From the UHGV virus genome UHGV-0154878: a stretch of DNA of 15,016 bases, one strand, 5' to 3'. The stretch is from a virus. Every line of letters starts with the position of its first letter. Within the stretch, counting starts at the first letter, position 1. Shown here one piece after another: positions 1-11,314 of the stretch. The position numbers and the translations under genes were made by a program. A model generated the notes under the pieces. That model made no database searches, was not told where the DNA came from, and saw only the letters and a list, made by a program, of their open reading frames with translations.

Positions 1-194
1 CTTGATCCATAGAGGATAAATGCAGACATCCCTTGTCTTGCTATGATCACTAGAATCATGAAACGAGCTGATCTATGCGCCCAAGCCTGGCTTATTTTTT
101 CTGATAGAGATTTCGCACTAAAAGCATGCGCTAAGCCGTAAATTGTCGAGATTGCCAACATCCCAAAAAAGCTTGCTATAGCGGTTCCAACCAT
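1..194 (-). CDS. Hypothetical small membrane protein, 3' end truncated by the window edge (N-terminal 64 aa visible: MVGTAIASFFGMLAISTIYGLAHAFSAKSLSEKISQAWAHRSARFMILVIIARQGMSAFILYGS...)
   Basis: Hand translation of the - strand from an ATG (complement of 192-194) stays open to position 1. An AAGGGG Shine-Dalgarno lies about 6 nt upstream. It starts 17 nt downstream of the cI stop on the same strand, so it is probably co-transcribed with cI. Two hydrophobic stretches are visible. It is absent from the ORF track because it has no stop in the window. Confidence 0.5.
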   Translation of the reverse strand, partial: MVGTAIASFFGMLAISTIYGLAHAFSAKSLSEKISQAWAHRSARFMILVIIARQGMSAFILYGS

Positions 195-211
195 AATCGC
201 CCCTTGCGTGA

Positions 212-928
212 TCAAACCAGCCTTAGTTTTGTCTCAATTGCAACGCCTATAATCTTGCAGTTTCCATTGATTGGCACGAGAGGCCATGCAGGGTTAAGTC
301 CCTTGAGGTATTTATTTCCGCCGTCGATTATCAGCTTCTTGAATGTTGCTTCGTTAGAGTCAGAAAGTTTTGCTATGACCAAGCTGCCGTTGATCGCCTC
401 CCTTCCGGTATCGAAAAGAACGAATGTTCCCTCTGGAATGCTTAACCCAACCGGTGCCGTCATTGAATCACCTTCCACTTTAAGCCAGAACGCATTACCT
501 TGAATATGCGCGTCAGACTCAAGCCAAACATCTATGTCTTTAATGGTGTATGGTTCGCATGCTTCACACCACGAGCCAGCCTGGATACTGCTTAACACCG
601 GATACCTCTTTCCTGCTCTGTATTCCCCTGCATACCTTACGTTGGCATCGCTCTTAAGGCTTTCTGCCTGTTCTGCAACCTTGGCAGCAATTGACTGGCT
701 AAAATCAGCAATTGAGACTTGCAACAATCGTGCAAAACCAGATGCAACCTCAACGTTTAGCGCATTTCTGCCATTAAGATAATGCCCTACCGCTCCTTGG
801 GTGATACCCAGTTCATCAGCGATTGAGTATTGGGTTATTCCCAATTCTTTCTTTTTTGACTCATACAAAGCCTTAAGCCGCTTAGCGTCTTCGAGCTGTT
901 CTGTCGTCAGTGATTTTTTATTTTCCAT
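212..928 (-). CDS. cI: CI-type prophage repressor (N-terminal HTH, C-terminal S24/LexA-like autocleavage domain)
   Basis: The 238-aa ORF aligns by eye with lambda CI along its length (LTxEQLEDAxRLKAxYExKKxELG...; FWLxVEGxSMTAP; ATFKKLIxD). It is divergent from the cro-like gene across a roughly 100-bp operator region. Confidence 0.93.
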   Translation of the reverse strand: MENKKSLTTEQLEDAKRLKALYESKKKELGITQYSIADELGITQGAVGHYLNGRNALNVEVASGFARLLQVSIADFSQSIAAKVAEQAESLKSDANVRYAGEYRAGKRYPVLSSIQAGSWCEACEPYTIKDIDVWLESDAHIQGNAFWLKVEGDSMTAPVGLSIPEGTFVLFDTGREAINGSLVIAKLSDSNEATFKKLIIDGGNKYLKGLNPAWPLVPINGNCKIIGVAIETKLRLV

Positions 929-934
929 AGCTTA

Positions 935-1012
935 ATTCTAATAGCTAAGGTACTTAAACTAAAAATACCCTGAGTATTGATTGCTTTGAATACCTGTAGT
1001 ATTCTTTGTTCA
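935..1012. promoter_or_regulatory. OR-like immunity operator region with three sites sharing AATAC-N5-GTATT, plus candidate divergent promoters PRM and PR
   Basis: Two perfect palindromes are AATACcctgaGTATT (964-978) and gAATACctgtaGTATTc (988-1004). A degenerate third is AATAGctaagGTACT (940-954). Centre-to-centre spacing is 24 to 25 bp. A candidate PRM -10 (TAGAAT on the - strand, + coordinates 935-940) sits about 6 nt upstream of the cI ATG, implying a leaderless cI mRNA as in lambda. A candidate PR is TTGATT (977-982), 17 bp, TATTCT (1000-1005). Promoter hexamers are weak matches and uncertain. Confidence 0.6.
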
Positions 1013-2689: not shown

Positions 2690-4115
2690 TTTTTATGCGC
2701 CGCCCCATAGCATCGAGGCAGAGCAGGCGGTGATTGGTGGATTGCTTCTGGATGATGACAGCAGTGAGCGCGTCCAGAAAGTTCTGGCGATGCTGAAGCC
2801 TGATTCATTTTACAGCCGACCACACAAAATCCTTTTCGAAGAAATAACCAGAATGCACCGGGAGCAAAAGCCAGTAGATGGCCTGACGCTTTTCGATGAA
2901 CTGGAGCGTAAATCGTTAACGGCGTCTGTTGGCGGTTTTGCTTATATCGCTGAGATCGCAAAGAACACGCCAAGCGCAGCAAACATCGTTGCCTATGCAA
3001 TGCAGGTTCGTGAAACCGCAATGGAACGCTACGCCATCAACCGCATGACTGAAGCGACGGAATTGCTCTATTCCCGCAACGGAATGACTGCAACGCAGAA
3101 GTACGAAGCTATTCAGGCGATTTTCACGCAACTGACAGACCATGCAAAAACCGGATCGCGTCGCGGCCTTCGCTCATTTGGTGAGGTCATGGAAGACTGG
3201 GTTAGCGACCTTGAGAAGCGATTTGACCCGTCAGGCGAACAACGAGGAATGAGCACAGGGATCCCATCGCTGGACAGGATGCTGTCACCGAAAGGTCTGG
3301 TGAAAGGCTCTCTGTTTGTCATTGGCGCTCGCCCTAAGATGGGGAAAACGACGCTATACAGCCAGATGGCAATCAACTGCGCAGTGCATGAGAAAAAGCC
3401 CGCTCTGATGTTCAGCCTTGAAATGCCAGGTGATCAGATACTGGAAAAACTGGTAGGGCAGAAGTCTGGTGTTAACCCGAATATTTTTTACCTTCCGGCG
3501 ACAAATGACGCTGATGACGGCTATCAGGGTGATTACGATGGTGACTTCAACAGGGCGATCGAAACAGCCAATCGCTTGAGTGAAATCGACCTGCTTTACA
3601 TCGACGACACGCCGGGATTATCTCTGGCTCAAATCGTCAGCGAAAGCCGTCGAATCAAGCGAGAAAAAGGATGTGTTGGCATGATTCTGGTCGATTACCT
3701 GACACTAATGACCGCTGAGAAGGCCGATCGCAACGACCTTGCTTACGGCATGATCACCAAAGGACTGAAGAACCTTGCCAAAGAGCTTGATTGCGTTGTT
3801 GTGCTTCTGACACAGCTTAACCGCGCACTGGAAAGCCGAACCAATAAACGCCCATTACCAAGTGACTCGCGAGATACAGGGCAGATTGAACAGGATTGCG
3901 ATTATTGGGTCGGGATCCATCGTGAAGGTGCTTTTGATGACAGCGTTCCTCCTGGTGAAACCGAACTAATCCTTCGTCTCAATCGTCATGGCAATACCGG
4001 CACGGTGTATTGCATTCAGGCAAATGGCGCTATTTATGACACAGACCAACAGTCTGCTGAAATGCGCCGACGTGAACGCGAGGAACCGCAGTCCAAGAAG
4101 AAAGGAGGATTCTGA
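2679..4115 (+). CDS. Replicative DNA helicase, DnaB family (P22 gp12-like)
   Basis: DnaB N-terminal domain (SIEAEQAVIGGLLLD...). Walker A GARPKMGKTT. RecA-like C-terminal region. GAGGG Shine-Dalgarno before ATG 2679, which overlaps the upstream stop. Confidence 0.9.
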   Translation: MTDNFYAPPHSIEAEQAVIGGLLLDDDSSERVQKVLAMLKPDSFYSRPHKILFEEITRMHREQKPVDGLTLFDELERKSLTASVGGFAYIAEIAKNTPSAANIVAYAMQVRETAMERYAINRMTEATELLYSRNGMTATQKYEAIQAIFTQLTDHAKTGSRRGLRSFGEVMEDWVSDLEKRFDPSGEQRGMSTGIPSLDRMLSPKGLVKGSLFVIGARPKMGKTTLYSQMAINCAVHEKKPALMFSLEMPGDQILEKLVGQKSGVNPNIFYLPATNDADDGYQGDYDGDFNRAIETANRLSEIDLLYIDDTPGLSLAQIVSESRRIKREKGCVGMILVDYLTLMTAEKADRNDLAYGMITKGLKNLAKELDCVVVLLTQLNRALESRTNKRPLPSDSRDTGQIEQDCDYWVGIHREGAFDDSVPPGETELILRLNRHGNTGTVYCIQANGAIYDTDQQSAEMRRREREEPQSKKKGGF

Positions 4116-4805: not shown

Positions 4806-5252
4806 ATGAGGCAAATATACATGCTTCGCAACGAAGCAATCAGAAACAACGCCATAGACGCAATACACTCACTTCCGATCGACGACAAGTCACCCCACGA
4901 AGTCCACATTAAAGAACCAAAGCGGAGCAATCCTCAAAACCGCCTTATGTGGGCGTTATTGCAGGACGTATCGCGTCAGGTGCTCTGGCATGGAGAGAGA
5001 CTTGCGCCGGAGGACTGGAAAGATCTGTTCACTGCCCTGTGGCTTAAGACCAAAAAACTGGAGCAACGAAGTGCGCCTGGTATCGACGGTGGCGTTGTTA
5101 TGCTTGGCGTGCGTACCAGCAAAATGCGAAAGGCCAGCATGACTGAGCTTATCGAAATCATGTTCTGGTTCGGCTCAGAGCGCAACGTGCGGTGGAGTGA
5201 TGACTCCCGGCGAGAGTATGAATGGTCACAACGAAAAGGGAAGGCTGCATGA
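4806..5252 (+). CDS. ninB: NinB/Orf-family recombination protein
   Basis: Resembles lambda NinB (QNRxLWAxLxDVSRQVxWHG...WKxxFTA...RxVRWSD). ATG 4821 is an alternative start. Confidence 0.75.
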   Translation: MRQIYMLRNEAIRNNAIDAIHSLPIDDKSPHEVHIKEPKRSNPQNRLMWALLQDVSRQVLWHGERLAPEDWKDLFTALWLKTKKLEQRSAPGIDGGVVMLGVRTSKMRKASMTELIEIMFWFGSERNVRWSDDSRREYEWSQRKGKAA

Positions 5253-5776
5253 CTATCAAATCAAATACGCCAGCACACGACAAGGACTGCTGGCAAACGC
5301 CGCTCTGGCTTTTTGATGCGCTGGATATTGAGTTTGGATTCTGGCTGGATTCAGCTGCGAGCGACAAAAACGCTCTGTGCGCTCACTGGCTAACTGAGGC
5401 TGACGACGCGCTAAATTCTGAGTGGATAAGCCACGGTGCAATCTGGAATAACCCACCGTACAGCAATATCAGGCCGTGGGTGGAAAAAGCCGCTGAGCAG
5501 TGCATACAACAGCGACAGACGGTAGTGATGCTTGTGCCAGAGGATATGTCAGTCGGATGGTTCAGCAAGGCTCTGGAGAGTGTCGACGAAGTTCGCATTA
5601 TCACTGATGGACGGATTAATTTTATCGAACCATCGACAGGGCTGGAGAAGAAGGGAAACAGCAAAGGCTCCATGCTGCTGATTTGGCGACCGTTCATCAG
5701 TCCTCGACGGATGTTTACTACCGTATCCAAAGCGGCATTGATGGCGATCGGGCAGGGCGTCAGGAGGGCGGCATGA
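5249..5776 (+). CDS. Phage Dam-family DNA N6-adenine methyltransferase (orphan)
   Basis: Motifs DxWQTPxWLFDALDxEFGF and NPPYS (the catalytic D/N-PP-Y/F motif). ATGA overlap with the ninB stop. No adjacent restriction endonuclease. Confidence 0.8.
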
Positions 5777-5955: not shown

Positions 5956-6122
5956 TTGACCCAAATCGAAGTTACGAACAAGAAAGCGTCGAGCGGGCTT
6001 TAACGTGCGCTAACTGCGGTCAGAAGCTGCATGTGCTGGAAGTTCACGTGTGCTCCGATTGCTGCGCAGAACTGATGAGCGATCCGAATAGCTCAATGTA
6101 CGAGGAAGAAGACGATGAATGA
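5952..6122 (+). CDS. ninF: NinF-like small Cys-rich protein (56 aa; GTG start)
   Basis: Hand-translated [56 protein letters not shown] resembles lambda NinF. GTGA overlap with the ninE stop. Below the ORF-track size cut-off. Confidence 0.6.
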
Positions 6123-6837
6123 GTTAATAAATGGCAATGCCATCAAAATGACAAGCATTGAAATCGCTGAGTTGGTGGGTAAGCGTCATGACAATGTGAA
6201 ACGTACCATCGAAACGCTGGCTAAAAATGGTGTTATCCGGCTTCCTCAAATTGAGGTTTCCGAAAGAATCAATAACTTAGGGTTCAATGTTCAGTACGAG
6301 CATTACGTCTTCGAAGGCGAACAAGGTAAGCGAGATAGTATTGTTGTTGTTGCCCAGTTGTCGCCAGAGTTCACCGCTCGCCTTGTTGACCGCTGGCGAG
6401 AGCTTGAAGAAGCTGCGGTTAATATCCCCAAAACGCTACCGGAAGCGTTGCGCCTTGCTGCTGATCTTGCTGAGCAGAAAATGCAACTGGAAAACCAGCT
6501 CGCAATTGCCGCACCTAAAGTTGAGTTTGCCGATCGCGTTGGCGAGGCCAGCGGAATTTTGATTGGAAACTTTGCAAAGGTTGTTGGTATTGGTCCAAAC
6601 AAACTGTTTGCGTGGATGCGCGATCACAAAATCCTTATTGCTTCAGGTTCCCGGCGCAATGTGCCAATGCAGGAATATATGGATCGCGGCTATTTCACAG
6701 TGAAAGAAACAGCGGTCAACACAAATCACGGAATACAGATATCGTTCACCACAAAAATCACCGGGCGTGGTCAACAGTGGCTGACCAGAAAGCTGCTCGA
6801 TAACGGAATGCTGAAAGTAACAGGGGAGGCTGCTTAA
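6115..6837 (+). CDS. Phage antirepressor, Rha-family N-terminal domain with KilAC/ANT C-terminal domain
   Basis: N-terminus IEIAELVGKRHDNVKRTIETL is typical of the Rha family. The C-terminus (KLFAWMRDHKIL...EYMDRGYF) is typical of KilAC antirepressor domains. Confidence 0.75.
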   Translation: MNELINGNAIKMTSIEIAELVGKRHDNVKRTIETLAKNGVIRLPQIEVSERINNLGFNVQYEHYVFEGEQGKRDSIVVVAQLSPEFTARLVDRWRELEEAAVNIPKTLPEALRLAADLAEQKMQLENQLAIAAPKVEFADRVGEASGILIGNFAKVVGIGPNKLFAWMRDHKILIASGSRRNVPMQEYMDRGYFTVKETAVNTNHGIQISFTTKITGRGQQWLTRKLLDNGMLKVTGEAA

Positions 6838-7127
6838 TGGCTAACCTACGCAAAGAAGCGCGCGGCAGAGAATGCCAGGTACGTATTTACGGCGTATGCA
6901 ATGGCAATCCTGAAACTACAGTTCTGGCACATTACCGGATGGCTGGAATTTGCGGAACGGGAATGAAGCCTGACGACCTGATCGGCGCATGGGCTTGTAG
7001 CGCGTGTCACGATGAAATCGACCGACGCACCCATAATCTCGACAACAAAGACGCCAGACTTTACCACCTCGAAGGCGTGATCAGGACGCAGGCGATACTG
7101 CTGAAGGAGGGGAAGATTAAGCCATGA
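6837..7127 (+). CDS. DUF1364-family protein (YbcO-like putative nuclease, Cys/His-rich)
   Basis: RGRECQVRIxGVCNGNPETxVLAH...CSACHDEIDRRTH resembles E. coli DLP12 YbcO. TAATG overlap with the upstream stop and a GGGGAGG Shine-Dalgarno. Confidence 0.7.
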   Translation: MANLRKEARGRECQVRIYGVCNGNPETTVLAHYRMAGICGTGMKPDDLIGAWACSACHDEIDRRTHNLDNKDARLYHLEGVIRTQAILLKEGKIKP

Positions 7128-7486: not shown

Positions 7487-7671
7487 ACGCCACAATTCAA
7501 ACGATACCAGAGCTTCTTATCCAGACACGAGGCAATCAGACCGAAGTGGCGAGGATGCTTTCCTGCGCAAGAGGAACAGTGCTCAAGTACAACCGAGACA
7601 GCAAAGGCGAGCGTCACGTAATAGTTAACGGCGTCCTGATGGTCAAACAGGGCAAGAGGGGAAGACGATGA
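7483..7671 (+). CDS. ninH: NinH-like protein
   Basis: TIPExLxxxxGNQTEVARxLxCxRGTVxKYxxDxxGxxHxIVNxVLMV matches lambda NinH. Confidence 0.75.
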   Translation: MNATIQTIPELLIQTRGNQTEVARMLSCARGTVLKYNRDSKGERHVIVNGVLMVKQGKRGRR

Positions 7672-8156
7672 GCATAAGAGAACTAAACCTCACCAAAGAG
7701 CAGCACGAGTGGCTGAATGGCTGGCTTGAACTGTGGGGCGCATGGGTTTATTCAGGTCGTCTGGAAAAGCGCATGAGCAGCGTAATAGCGAAGTTCATGG
7801 AGAGCGTAGAGCCGGGAAGAGTTATGACAAGGCCAATGTGCAATGATGATGATGGAATGTTGATTTCTCAGGTCGTCGATTCCGTCATGTACATTGACAA
7901 GAAAGCCTTTGGCATCCTCCTCAGCTACTACGCTCATGGATCTTCCAAGCATGCCATTGCATCTTACTATCATCGCGTCGCAAGACCTCGCAAGATGTTA
8001 TGCCGGGGCGGCGGGCGTATTCAAAAACCATCGCTCGCAACCTGTCGCCGGGAAGTTGACGAAATCCTCAATGCTTCGTTGTTTATGATTTACCCGGTTC
8101 TGGATAGTGCGTTTAAAAACCGGAAACGTGTAGAGAAAATTAAACATGTAGCATAG
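7668..8156 (+). CDS. Q: Late-gene antitermination protein Q (QuuD/Q82-like family)
   Basis: Motifs LELWGAWV and RPMCNDDDGMLI resemble QuuD-type Q proteins. It is the last gene of the nin region and sits immediately upstream of a promoter-like element, tRNA genes and the lysis cassette. Confidence 0.8.
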   Translation: MSIRELNLTKEQHEWLNGWLELWGAWVYSGRLEKRMSSVIAKFMESVEPGRVMTRPMCNDDDGMLISQVVDSVMYIDKKAFGILLSYYAHGSSKHAIASYYHRVARPRKMLCRGGGRIQKPSLATCRREVDEILNASLFMIYPVLDSAFKNRKRVEKIKHVA

Positions 8157-8247: not shown

Positions 8248-8322
8248 GGGTCAGTCGTATAAAGGTCATTACGGAAGGCTGTTAACCTTCTTATCGTGGT
8301 TCGAGTCCACGCTGTCCCGCCA
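8248..8322 (+). tRNA. tRNA with anticodon GTT (Asn), non-canonical (one acceptor-stem mismatch, short D-stem)
   Basis: Hand-folded cloverleaf. Anticodon arm GAAGG-cTGTTaa-CCTTC. T-arm CGTGG-TTCGAGT-CCACG. Acceptor GGGTCAG/CTGTCCC has a T-T mismatch at position 4:69. Discriminator G, then encoded CCA. Confidence 0.6.
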
Positions 8323-8327
8323 AATAT

Positions 8328-8403
8328 GCTGGTTTAGCTCCAATGGTAGAGCGGTCGCCTTGTAAGCGAATGGGTAGCGGTTCAAGTCCGTTAACCAGCA
8401 CCA
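8328..8403 (+). tRNA. tRNA with anticodon TGT (Thr)
   Basis: Perfect 7-bp acceptor stem GCTGGTT/AACCAGC. D-arm GCTC-caatGGta-GAGC. Anticodon loop cTTGTaa. T-arm AGCGG-TTCAAGT-CCGTT. Discriminator A, then encoded CCA. Confidence 0.75.
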
Positions 8404-8645: not shown

Positions 8646-8969
8646 ATGAAGATGCCAGAAAAACATGACCTGTTAGCCGCCATTCTCGCGGCAAAGGAAC
8701 AAGGCATCGGGGCAATCCTTGCGTTTGCAATGGCGTACCTTCGCGGCAGATATAATGGCGGTGCGTTTACAAAAACAGTAATCGACGCAACGATGTGCGC
8801 CATTATCGCCTGGTTCATTCGTGACCTTCTCGACTTCGCCGGACTAAGTAGCAATCTCGCTTATATAACGAGCGTGTTCATCGGCTACATCGGTACTGAC
8901 TCGATTGGTTCGCTTATCAAACGCTTCGCTGCTAAAAAAGCCGGAGTAGAAGATGGTGGAAATCAATAA
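8646..8969 (+). CDS. S: Class I holin, lambda S type, with dual-start motif (Met1-Lys2-Met3)
   Basis: The 107-aa product is almost identical to lambda S as I recall it ([39 protein letters not shown]...). The MKM N-terminus corresponds to the S107 antiholin and S105 holin starts. Confidence 0.95.
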
Positions 8970-10134: not shown

Positions 10135-10188
10135 CATTACAGAAGCCCTTCACTGAGGGGCTTCGATAATGGAGCACTGGAATTATTC

Positions 10189-10809
10189 ATGAACAGACCA
10201 CACCCACCAGCGCATTTTACGATGCCACCTGACCCGAAGCCGTACATCAGCATTATGCCCGCTAATGACGTTGGCGAGTGGCTGAATCAGCACATCCTGA
10301 GCGATGAGGGTGACCTCTACAACCCTGACCACCAGCATTTGCTTGAAGCGGATCTGTGCTTTCTCTGGGCGTCGAACGCTTTCGAGAAGAAAGGGCGTTC
10401 CGTGCTGGGGCAGGCGGAAGAAGTGGCAATGCGTGCCGGAGGCTGGCAGAAAGCGCGGATGGAGCAGCAGATGTATGAATGGTTCGGCAGGGTGCCGCAG
10501 TTCATCATCACGCTGGCCGCTGATTACTGCTCGCAATGTTCCGATCTGGAATTCTGCGCGCTGATAGAGCACGAGCTTTATCACATTTGCCAGGCGACAG
10601 ATGAATTTGGCGCGCCGAAGTTCACGCAGGAAGGGCAGCCAAAGCTGAAGCTGCGCGGCCATGACGTGGAAGAGTTTGTGGGCGTGGTTCGCCGTTACGG
10701 TGCGAGCCGGGACGTGCAGGAAATGATTGATGCGGCGAATCAGCCAGCGGAGGTTGCTCATCTCGATATTGCCAGAGCGTGCGGGACGTGCATGCTGCGA
10801 CTGGCTTAA
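10189..10809 (+). CDS. Putative zinc metallopeptidase-like protein (HExxH motif), possibly of the phage 'putative peptidase' family
   Basis: EHELYH motif in a 206-aa ORF co-oriented with all flanking late genes. The overlapping - strand ORF (10183-10878) has antisense-type composition. Family assignment is from memory and unverified. Confidence 0.5.
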   Translation: MNRPHPPAHFTMPPDPKPYISIMPANDVGEWLNQHILSDEGDLYNPDHQHLLEADLCFLWASNAFEKKGRSVLGQAEEVAMRAGGWQKARMEQQMYEWFGRVPQFIITLAADYCSQCSDLEFCALIEHELYHICQATDEFGAPKFTQEGQPKLKLRGHDVEEFVGVVRRYGASRDVQEMIDAANQPAEVAHLDIARACGTCMLRLA

Positions 10810-10840
10810 ATACTGGACTGTATAAGACGAATGGTGATTT

Positions 10841-11314
10841 ATGGCTGCATTAAAACCTGATGTGAAAGCCTTCATCATTCAGTCGCTTGCGTGCTATGAC
10901 ACGCCATCGCAGGTGGTCGAGGCTGTCCAAAAAGAATTCGGGATCAAGATCACCCGCCAGCAGGCTGAATCTCACGACCCCACGAAGGCCAGCGGTAAGA
11001 CGCTCGCCAAAAAGTGGATCGAGATGTTCCACGCGACGCGCGAACGGTTCCTGACCGAAACCAGCGACATTCCGATCGCGAACAAATCCTATCGCCTCCG
11101 CGTGCTTGACCGCATGGCAACCAAAACCGAGGGGATGAAAAACTTCTCCCTGACGGCGCAGCTGATTGAACAGGCCGCGAAAGAGGTTGGCGACGCTTAC
11201 ACCAATAAGCTGAAGGTTGAGAGCACTGGCAAGGATGGCGGCCCGATCAAGACCGAGACGACCAACCTCACCGCAGATCAGGCCGCAGAGATTTACCGCA
11301 AGATGATGGGGTGA
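10841..11314 (+). CDS. Putative terminase small subunit (DUF2280-like)
   Basis: 157-aa ORF immediately upstream of the large terminase subunit, with an overlapping stop. The N-terminal region looks like a DNA-binding domain. Assignment is by position and weak recollection. Confidence 0.5.

Follow-up and report, generated by a model that had tools for sequence, protein, structure and literature searches.

The locus downstream of cI

The window analysed here is a 15,016-nucleotide stretch of a viral genome (UHGV-0154878). Its left end carries, on the minus strand, a cI repressor gene and the beginning of a small open reading frame (Table 1), and sequence comparison identifies this frame as the start of hkaS, the second and last gene of the presumed immunity operon of HK620-type phages. 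In the minus-strand reading, the cI stop codon TGA lies at 214-212 and the hkaS ATG at 194-192. The frame (194-3) is open for 64 codons up to the window edge, which cuts the gene at codon 64, and the visible peptide of 64 amino acids is MVGTAIASFFGMLAISTIYGLAHAFSAKSLSEKISQAWAHRSARFMILVIIARQGMSAFILYGS. By Kyte-Doolittle hydropathy, residues 1-24 and 43-64 are hydrophobic and a basic segment lies between them, so the portion within the window covers the predicted TM1 (residues 1-24), a basic cytoplasmic loop (residues 25-44) and most of TM2. The preliminary description of this DNA had reported a minus-strand frame beginning 17 nt past the cI stop, with a good Shine-Dalgarno sequence and a small product containing at least two hydrophobic segments. 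Our reading agrees on each of these points.

Table 1. Features at the left end of the window.
Feature	Position	Strand	Basis or remark
hkaS, 5' part (codons 1-64 plus 2 nt)	1..194	-	Translation, PHROG 6534 match, HK620 annotation, hydropathy, AlphaFold2 model of orthologue
cI-hkaS spacer, 17 nt	195..211	-	Contains Shine-Dalgarno AAGGGG (205-200), 5 nt before the ATG
cI repressor, 238 aa, HTH_3 and Peptidase_S24, HK620 immunity type	212..928	-	ORF, Pfam, protein identity
OR3-OR2-OR1 operators with divergent pRM/pR	939..1012	.	Coordinates carried over by homology from the HK620 annotation

The cI gene would be the first gene of a presumed cI-hkaS operon, whose transcript would begin at pRM in the operator region. 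The cI protein of the window is 99.6-100% identical to those of HK620, mEpX2, HK630, HK140 and the Stx2c phages. Operator positions were transferred from the HK620 locus (L001), in which OR3 is annotated at 4046-4062, OR2 at 4022-4038, OR1 at 3997-4013 and pR at 3989-4024, by taking the window position as 5001 minus the L001 position; positions 1-1000 of the window are 99.1% identical to HK620. The GC content of hkaS is about 42-43%, against 46-48% for cI. We considered a foreign origin of hkaS on this basis, and set it aside as the difference is modest and uninformative.

The gene has been catalogued since the 2001-series GenBank record of HK620 (AF335538; protein AAK28867.1), where hkaS is annotated as "unknown" with a length of 369 bp and a product of 122 amino acids. 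A gene in HK630 bears the same name; the orthologues in mEpX2, HK140, HF4s and the Stx2c phages have none. The 64 visible residues differ from HK620 HkaS at 4 positions, and the gene occupies the same place behind the same cI. At the DNA level, the fragment is 98-99% identical to the 5' part of the annotated 122-codon gene in its relatives. More broadly, positions 1-1000 of the window are 98.6-99.5% identical to 16 phage records (among them HK620, HK630, HK140, mEpX2, HZ41, HF4s, two vB_EcoP Stx phages, vB_EcoP-611R6 and two Stx2c phages), and 146 of the 5,426 complete E. coli genomes contain prophages in this identity range. The fragment matches positions 1-64 of the 122 in the PHROG 6534 profile (E 1.2e-35), the HK620 orthologue matches it from 1 to 122 (E 1.1e-78), and all six diverse members of the family match it as well. 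In phage HF4s (MT833387, 28106-28464), the hkaS protein matches in two pieces with 90% identity, probably reflecting a frameshift.

The preliminary description had left open both the extent of the product and the existence of a partner gene, and had allowed that the frame might end in an early stop just beyond the window. These points can now be settled from the relatives. In every orthologue the frame runs 58 codons beyond the position of the window edge and then stops, giving the 122-residue HkaS annotated in GenBank. The full gene was read from these 98-99% identical orthologues because a 44-mer and a 23-mer bearing the private variants of the window had no exact match in the viral, genome and metagenome collections. 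A longer form of 129 amino acids (P0001), with a TTG start overlapping the cI stop, was rejected: an in-frame stop directly before the ATG in both the Salmonella and the metagenome lineages fixes the start. The annotated order in HK620 is cI, hkaS, tIMM, OL3-OL1/pL, nutL and N, with pRE also annotated, and HK630 and the RefSeq prophages share this order. In HK620, HK630, the E. coli prophages and all of the divergent loci, hkaS stands by itself between cI and OL, so it has no partner gene there; OL/pL, nutL and N come next.

The copy in the window has some peculiarities of its own. It carries three private non-synonymous changes, I26S (nt 118), I53R (nt 37) and I56M (nt 27), each of which introduces a G on the coding strand; a fourth change (nt 51) is synonymous. 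The three substitutions are absent from every database copy and fall at sites that are invariant or conservatively hydrophobic in the family; Arg53 lies inside the predicted TM2 and adjoins the invariant Q54. This copy may therefore be impaired. Of the five mismatches to the closest genome within positions 1-1000, the 194 nt of hkaS hold four (binomial P 0.006), a clustering for which relaxed constraint, diversifying selection and sequence error are all candidate causes.

The arrangement of the locus bears on when hkaS would be expressed. The gene lies on the cI strand, behind the short ribosome-binding spacer and before OL. A consensus scan of the HK620 orthologue found no terminator-like site between cI and hkaS, and pL was the only promoter-like site in the scanned HK620 region, though such a scan may miss a weak internal promoter. 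In four lineages a stable stem-loop follows 10-22 nt after the hkaS stop (z -2.2 to -4.6), with stems that differ in sequence and, in all four, no clear U-tract; these stem-loops may terminate transcription or may only stabilise the RNA. Transcription from pRM must be stopped at this point, since it would otherwise run directly on into pL and N, which have the same orientation. This architecture suggests that hkaS is transcribed with cI from pRM in the lysogen, and from pRE during establishment. Precedents point the same way: by analogy with the cI-rexAB, cI-hex, cI-stk and cI-bstA pairs, HkaS should be made in the lysogen.

The preliminary description placed the gene in the slot that lambda uses for rexAB, and the lambda and HK620 layouts bear this out, with hkaS in the interval from cI to OL. 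It further took genes of this slot to be lysogen-expressed and typically to give superinfection exclusion or abortive infection. The interval between cI and N is a recognised accessory-gene hotspot, and in the BTP1 cI-bstA operon a single transcription start site serves both genes, with reads crossing the intergenic region (PMC7067206). The genes rexAB, stk and hex are lysogen-expressed accessory genes downstream of cI, and exclusion of other phages is a common property of genes that share the pRM transcript of the repressor (PMC3564112). However, position alone does not imply exclusion because the slot also holds regulators of the choice between lysis and lysogeny, namely 434 Hex and RexA/RexB. 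The gene hkaS belongs with rexAB, hex, stk and bstA among the accessory genes of immunity operons, a well-known class, and does not represent a new kind of system.

Comparison with the other members of this class shows a shared place rather than a shared protein. Like hkaS, BTP1 bstA and 933W stk each follow cI as the only accessory gene, in a lambdoid prophage; the cI promoter drives both. Their products are large and soluble (BstA a DNA-binding Abi protein, Stk a tyrosine kinase), whereas HkaS is a 122-residue predicted membrane protein. The 434 hex gene lies immediately after a related cI, 52% identical to that of the window, and is co-transcribed from pRM. Hex, annotated as a "repressor protection protein", has been reported to guard repressor from RecA-stimulated cleavage. 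Unlike HkaS, Hex as annotated has only an N-terminal signal-like stretch and no polytopic transmembrane helices, and the two align with an hhalign probability of 0.1%. Lambda RexB shares with HkaS the cI-OL slot, the cI strand and a polytopic inner-membrane character, and is expressed with repressor, as HkaS would be from its position. RexB has about 4 hydrophobic helices against the 3 predicted in HkaS, and HkaS has no adjacent rexA or other second gene; exclusion by RexB requires RexA. The preliminary description saw no resemblance to RexB in the visible part, and direct profile comparison gives the same answer: hhalign probability is 0.7% over 20 columns, and no RexB family in PHROG or PADLOC matches.

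Predicted topology and conserved residues of HkaS

HkaS is predicted, with good confidence, to be an inner-membrane protein with three transmembrane helices, its N-terminus outside and its C-terminus inside. Topology was assigned from hydropathy and the positive-inside rule. The loop at residues 25-44, which contains K28, K33, R41 and R44, should be cytoplasmic, and the loop at residues 71-92, which contains D81, D87, E90 and D91, should be periplasmic. An AlphaFold2 model of a full-length orthologue, built on a six-sequence alignment, has a mean pLDDT of 87 and a pTM of 0.74, with helices at 2-29, 31-38, 41-74 and 89-121 and a short hairpin in the 75-88 loop. Hydropathy and charge distribution predict three transmembrane helices in the full-length protein, in keeping with the earlier description of a membrane-protein gene. 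HK620 HkaS terminates in TFAD right after TM3, without a soluble or catalytic domain.

Conservation is unevenly spread over this predicted topology. The cytoplasmic loop and the C-terminal tail are the best-conserved parts of the protein: 45% of positions are invariant in the cytoplasmic loop, the highest value, versus 18% in the periplasmic loop, the lowest. Invariant positions total 43 of 122, among them the whole C-terminal motif K-x-ILVLT-x-A; the TFAD tail is present in five of six sequences. Within the helices, Q54, S106, D110 and K113 are invariant. In TM1, the small residues G3, A5, S8, G11 and S16 are invariant and lie on one helical face (P ~0.03), an arrangement that suggests helix packing or oligomerisation.

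Searches against known functions yielded little. No significant match was found in Pfam or NCBIfam, only sub-threshold hydrophobic noise (lnt, Cation_ATPase_C, TssN, Sdh_cyt), with Cation_ATPase_C reaching 19 bits against a cut-off of 27 bits and most likely reflecting transmembrane composition. None of the PADLOC-DB 2.0 defence models matched at E up to 10, no PHROG with an assigned function matched at E <0.5 (family 6534 alone matches), a PDB sequence search returned 0 matches, and fold searches gave generic helical bundles only. The preliminary description had suggested HMM and structure searches and had considered that the gene might turn out to encode a housekeeping phage protein; the searches returned no match of assigned function. 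In the literature, we found no paper naming hkaS together with HK620 or its RefSeq protein accession, and the papers on Hf4s and SieA are silent on the gene. Nor did the searches turn up an experiment on hkaS or a transcriptome from a lysogen of HK620 immunity.

Distribution, linkage to cI and selection

The HkaS family is small. A search of 5.8 billion proteins recovered 12 clusters only, and a profile search of 1.84 billion representative proteins found no relatives outside the family. The loci occur in E. coli, Salmonella and Hafnia prophages, always directly behind an HK620-type cI. This holds for 16 of 16 phage records, for 146 of 146 E. coli genomes and for all Salmonella, Hafnia and metagenome loci, with 0 exceptions, and no plasmid-borne copy was found. 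Five rare clusters depart from the common form (P0004, P0005, P0007, P0008 and P0009), three with a frameshifted N-terminal third and two with short internal deletions.

The linkage persists through considerable divergence. In the Hafnia and metagenome lineage HkaS is 82% identical to that of HK620 and the adjacent cI is 96% identical to the cI of the window; in Salmonella the corresponding values are 60% and 86%. Two further metagenome loci have HkaS identities of 55% (L017, whose partial cI is 84% identical to that of the window) and 52% (L007, cI 89%). All of these divergent loci lie between a cI of the same type and N, and their OL operator sequences are recognisably alike. On the other side of this boundary, the next-nearest cI genes (62-71% identity; Serratia OS31, Erwinia Eho49, Cronobacter ENT39118 and E. 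coli Fostie) are followed by an empty slot or by unrelated soluble ORFs. We looked for a distant HkaS behind these more distant cI genes, and the slot does not contain one. The content of the slot evidently turns over, as expected of an accessory locus. Three of these phages, with cI genes of 62-65% identity, have soluble slot proteins, none with an assigned function. In Erwinia phage vB_EhrS_49 (Eho49; L011 2230-2832) the protein has 200 residues and its gene follows cI by 12 nt; those of Cronobacter ENT39118 and Fostie resemble each other and have 111-120 residues (L012 2321-2683, L013 2322-2657).

Strict linkage to one repressor type is by itself no proof that the two are functionally coupled. 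Because hkaS is flanked by cI and by the OL operators that this cI must recognise, recombination will rarely separate them. The modules around it differ among carriers: N, replication and virion genes vary, from P22-like in HK620 to lambda-like in HK630 and to the Stx phages. Since the immunity module is carried with these different N, replication and virion types, the function of hkaS is not tied to the virion of its carrier.

The gene has been maintained as a coding sequence. In all compared lineages it is exactly 122 codons long with zero indels, and the ATG start and Shine-Dalgarno sequence are kept in every lineage, with short Shine-Dalgarno-bearing spacers of 14-20 nt in the Salmonella and metagenome lineages. 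Intact copies number ~650 member sequences versus ~6 that are frameshifted or deleted. Synonymous sites are saturated between lineages in both hkaS and cI (pS ~0.8), and pN is 0.27-0.33 for hkaS versus 0.07-0.08 for cI. An open frame of constant length and a pN well below the saturated pS indicate that HkaS is under purifying selection, and it evolves about four times faster than the neighbouring cI. That the frame is non-functional, merely hitch-hiking between cI and OL, might be argued from its modest size, the lack of relatives outside the module and the damaging-looking private substitutions in the window copy, but the identical length without indels, the pN well below saturation, the conserved start signals, the 43 invariant positions and the confident fold prediction effectively refute this.

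Possible roles of HkaS in the lysogen

The position of the gene makes HkaS a plausible and reasonable candidate for a prophage-encoded phage-exclusion factor. We put the chance that it serves in defence, by whatever mechanism, at about even. Our tentative preference is for single-component protection of the lysogen against other phages at the level of the membrane, most likely by blocking DNA entry, a mechanism proposed by analogy with SieA and Imm. HkaS would insert into the inner membrane, would probably be oligomeric, packed through the conserved small-residue face of TM1, and would interfere with the transfer of an incoming genome across the inner membrane, as P22 SieA and T4 Imm do. A two-component abortive system in the style of RexAB is less likely than such injection interference.

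P22 SieA resides in the inner membrane and prevents the delivery of DNA; its conserved motif FxRYPxEAxxFNK faces the cytoplasm (PMC10883804). SieA, T4 Imm and HK97 gp15 resemble HkaS as predicted: all are small, prophage-expressed, polytopic inner-membrane proteins without soluble domains. The conserved part is cytoplasmic in SieA (PMC10883804) and, by predicted topology, in HkaS as well. The SieA motif is absent from HkaS, and hkaS lies in the immunity region, tied to no virion type, whereas sieA is located between genes 16 and 9, in the virion region (PMC10883804).

Several observations count against genome-transfer blocking. First, HkaS has no similarity to any known exclusion or defence protein. 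Second, injection blockers (sieA, HK97 gp15, cor) usually lie in or beside the virion genes they protect against. A gene that travels with the immunity module across virion types would fit a heterotypic abortive role, or a regulatory one, at least as well. Third, the conserved face of HkaS is predicted to be cytoplasmic, though the same has been reported for SieA (PMC10883804).

Among the other possibilities, the one that survives best, though unlikely, is that HkaS tunes the lysis-lysogeny switch of its own phage, whether through membrane-bound FtsH/HflKC and the stability of CII and CIII during establishment or through prophage induction. There is precedent in this very slot: Hex, co-transcribed with 434 cI, stabilises lysogeny (PMC3564112), and a preprint describes an effect of RexA and RexB on the switch (bioRxiv 10.1101/2021.04.19.439022). 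Expression from pRE would also coincide exactly with the action of CII, and conservation is strongest in the cytoplasmic loop and the C-terminal tail of the protein. The strict linkage to one repressor type through deep divergence would suit a regulator too, but position alone accounts for it, the gene being shut in between cI and the OL operators, which must stay together. HkaS shows no relation to Hex, the nearest relatives of this cI (62-71% identity) do without HkaS, and an evolutionary rate about four times that of cI would be unusual for a core regulator.

Slightly less probable is an abortive-infection effector like RexB but acting without RexA, in which HkaS would form a latent, holin-like pore that opens on infection, depolarises the cell and aborts the incoming phage. 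HkaS occupies the slot of rexAB and goes with the immunity module, not with virion genes, as do the heterotypic Abi genes rexAB, stk and bstA. Its predicted topology resembles that of class I holins, in which three transmembrane helices place the N-terminus outside and the C-terminus inside; for HkaS, hydropathy and the positive-inside rule give three helices and a consistent charge distribution, and the polar and charged residues Q54, S106, D110 and K113 are invariant within the membrane segments. Yet HkaS has neither a sensor partner nor a soluble domain with which to sense infection. To our knowledge, the known single small polytopic phage proteins mostly block DNA entry, which also counts against a pore. 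Nor is the sequence that of either model: there is no RexB similarity, the best holin PHROG reaches an E value of 0.56 in only one of six members, and the charged C-terminal tail typical of holins is missing, since the protein ends in TFAD after TM3. The gene also lies outside the lysis cassette; the actual holin gene of the window is at 8646-8969.

Next, and somewhat more doubtful again, HkaS could be a lysogenic-conversion factor that alters the envelope physiology of the host (stress, antimicrobial or colicin tolerance, transport), with no role in phage conflict. A predicted membrane protein apparently expressed in the lysogen would fit, as would the intactness of the gene in nearly all of the ~650 sequences, from commensal and pathogenic E. 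coli, Salmonella and Hafnia. Lambda lom and bor are prophage accessory genes with host functions of this sort (cited in PMC7067206). However, no transporter or resistance family reaches threshold, HkaS has no soluble or catalytic domain, and the characterised occupants of the slot act on phages or on the switch (PMC3564112).

A more speculative and quite improbable idea is that HkaS represents a new type of sensor-less, single-protein membrane immunity factor coupled to its own repressor module. Such a protein might, for example, be a membrane switch linking the DNA entry of a rival, or membrane stress, to maintenance or induction of the prophage, and an arms race with other lambdoid phages would then account for how fast it evolves. 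The lack of relatives of known function, the conserved cytoplasmic face, the variable periplasmic loop, the invariant charged residues in the membrane and the association with one cI lineage through deep divergence are all compatible with a coupled factor of this type.

If HkaS does exclude phages, by blocking genome transfer or otherwise, the prophage-encoded defences would gain a new single-gene family of very small size. Part of the resistance pattern would then be accounted for in the ~3% of complete E. coli genomes with this immunity module, Stx2-converting phages included, which matters for phage typing and phage therapy. Exclusion would be the expected sort of result because the cI-N interval is a known hotspot. 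Should its role be to tune lysogeny, HkaS would be an equivalent of Hex or Rex located in the membrane. As a single gene of 369 bp, hkaS is a cheap and sensible target for an exclusion screen.

Finally, some features elsewhere in the window merit mention. Only ~46% of the length of the window is matched by HK620; the source is accordingly a mosaic relative and not HK620 itself. In the nin region (5222-5776 and 6115-7127, both on the plus strand) there are a DNA methyltransferase (PHROG 111), a Roi/Ant-type anti-repressor (PHROG 63) and an HNH endonuclease (PHROG 131). The late-promoter region contains two plus-strand tRNA genes, tRNA-Asn (GTT) at 8248-8322 and tRNA-Thr (TGT) at 8328-8403, with the Q antiterminator gene (7668-8156) on one side and the holin gene on the other; some Stx and lambdoid phages show the same arrangement. 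Immediately upstream of the terminase genes, a plus-strand ORF of 206 amino acids (10189-10809) matches PHROG 513, "transposase" (E 1.6e-97); the overlapping minus-strand ORF of 231 amino acids (10183-10878) has no match and is probably spurious. In the HK620 locus (L001 6990-7048), outside the region covered by the window, the Rfam cIII thermoregulator Lambda_thermo is found with 88.5 bits, upstream of a shortened cIII.
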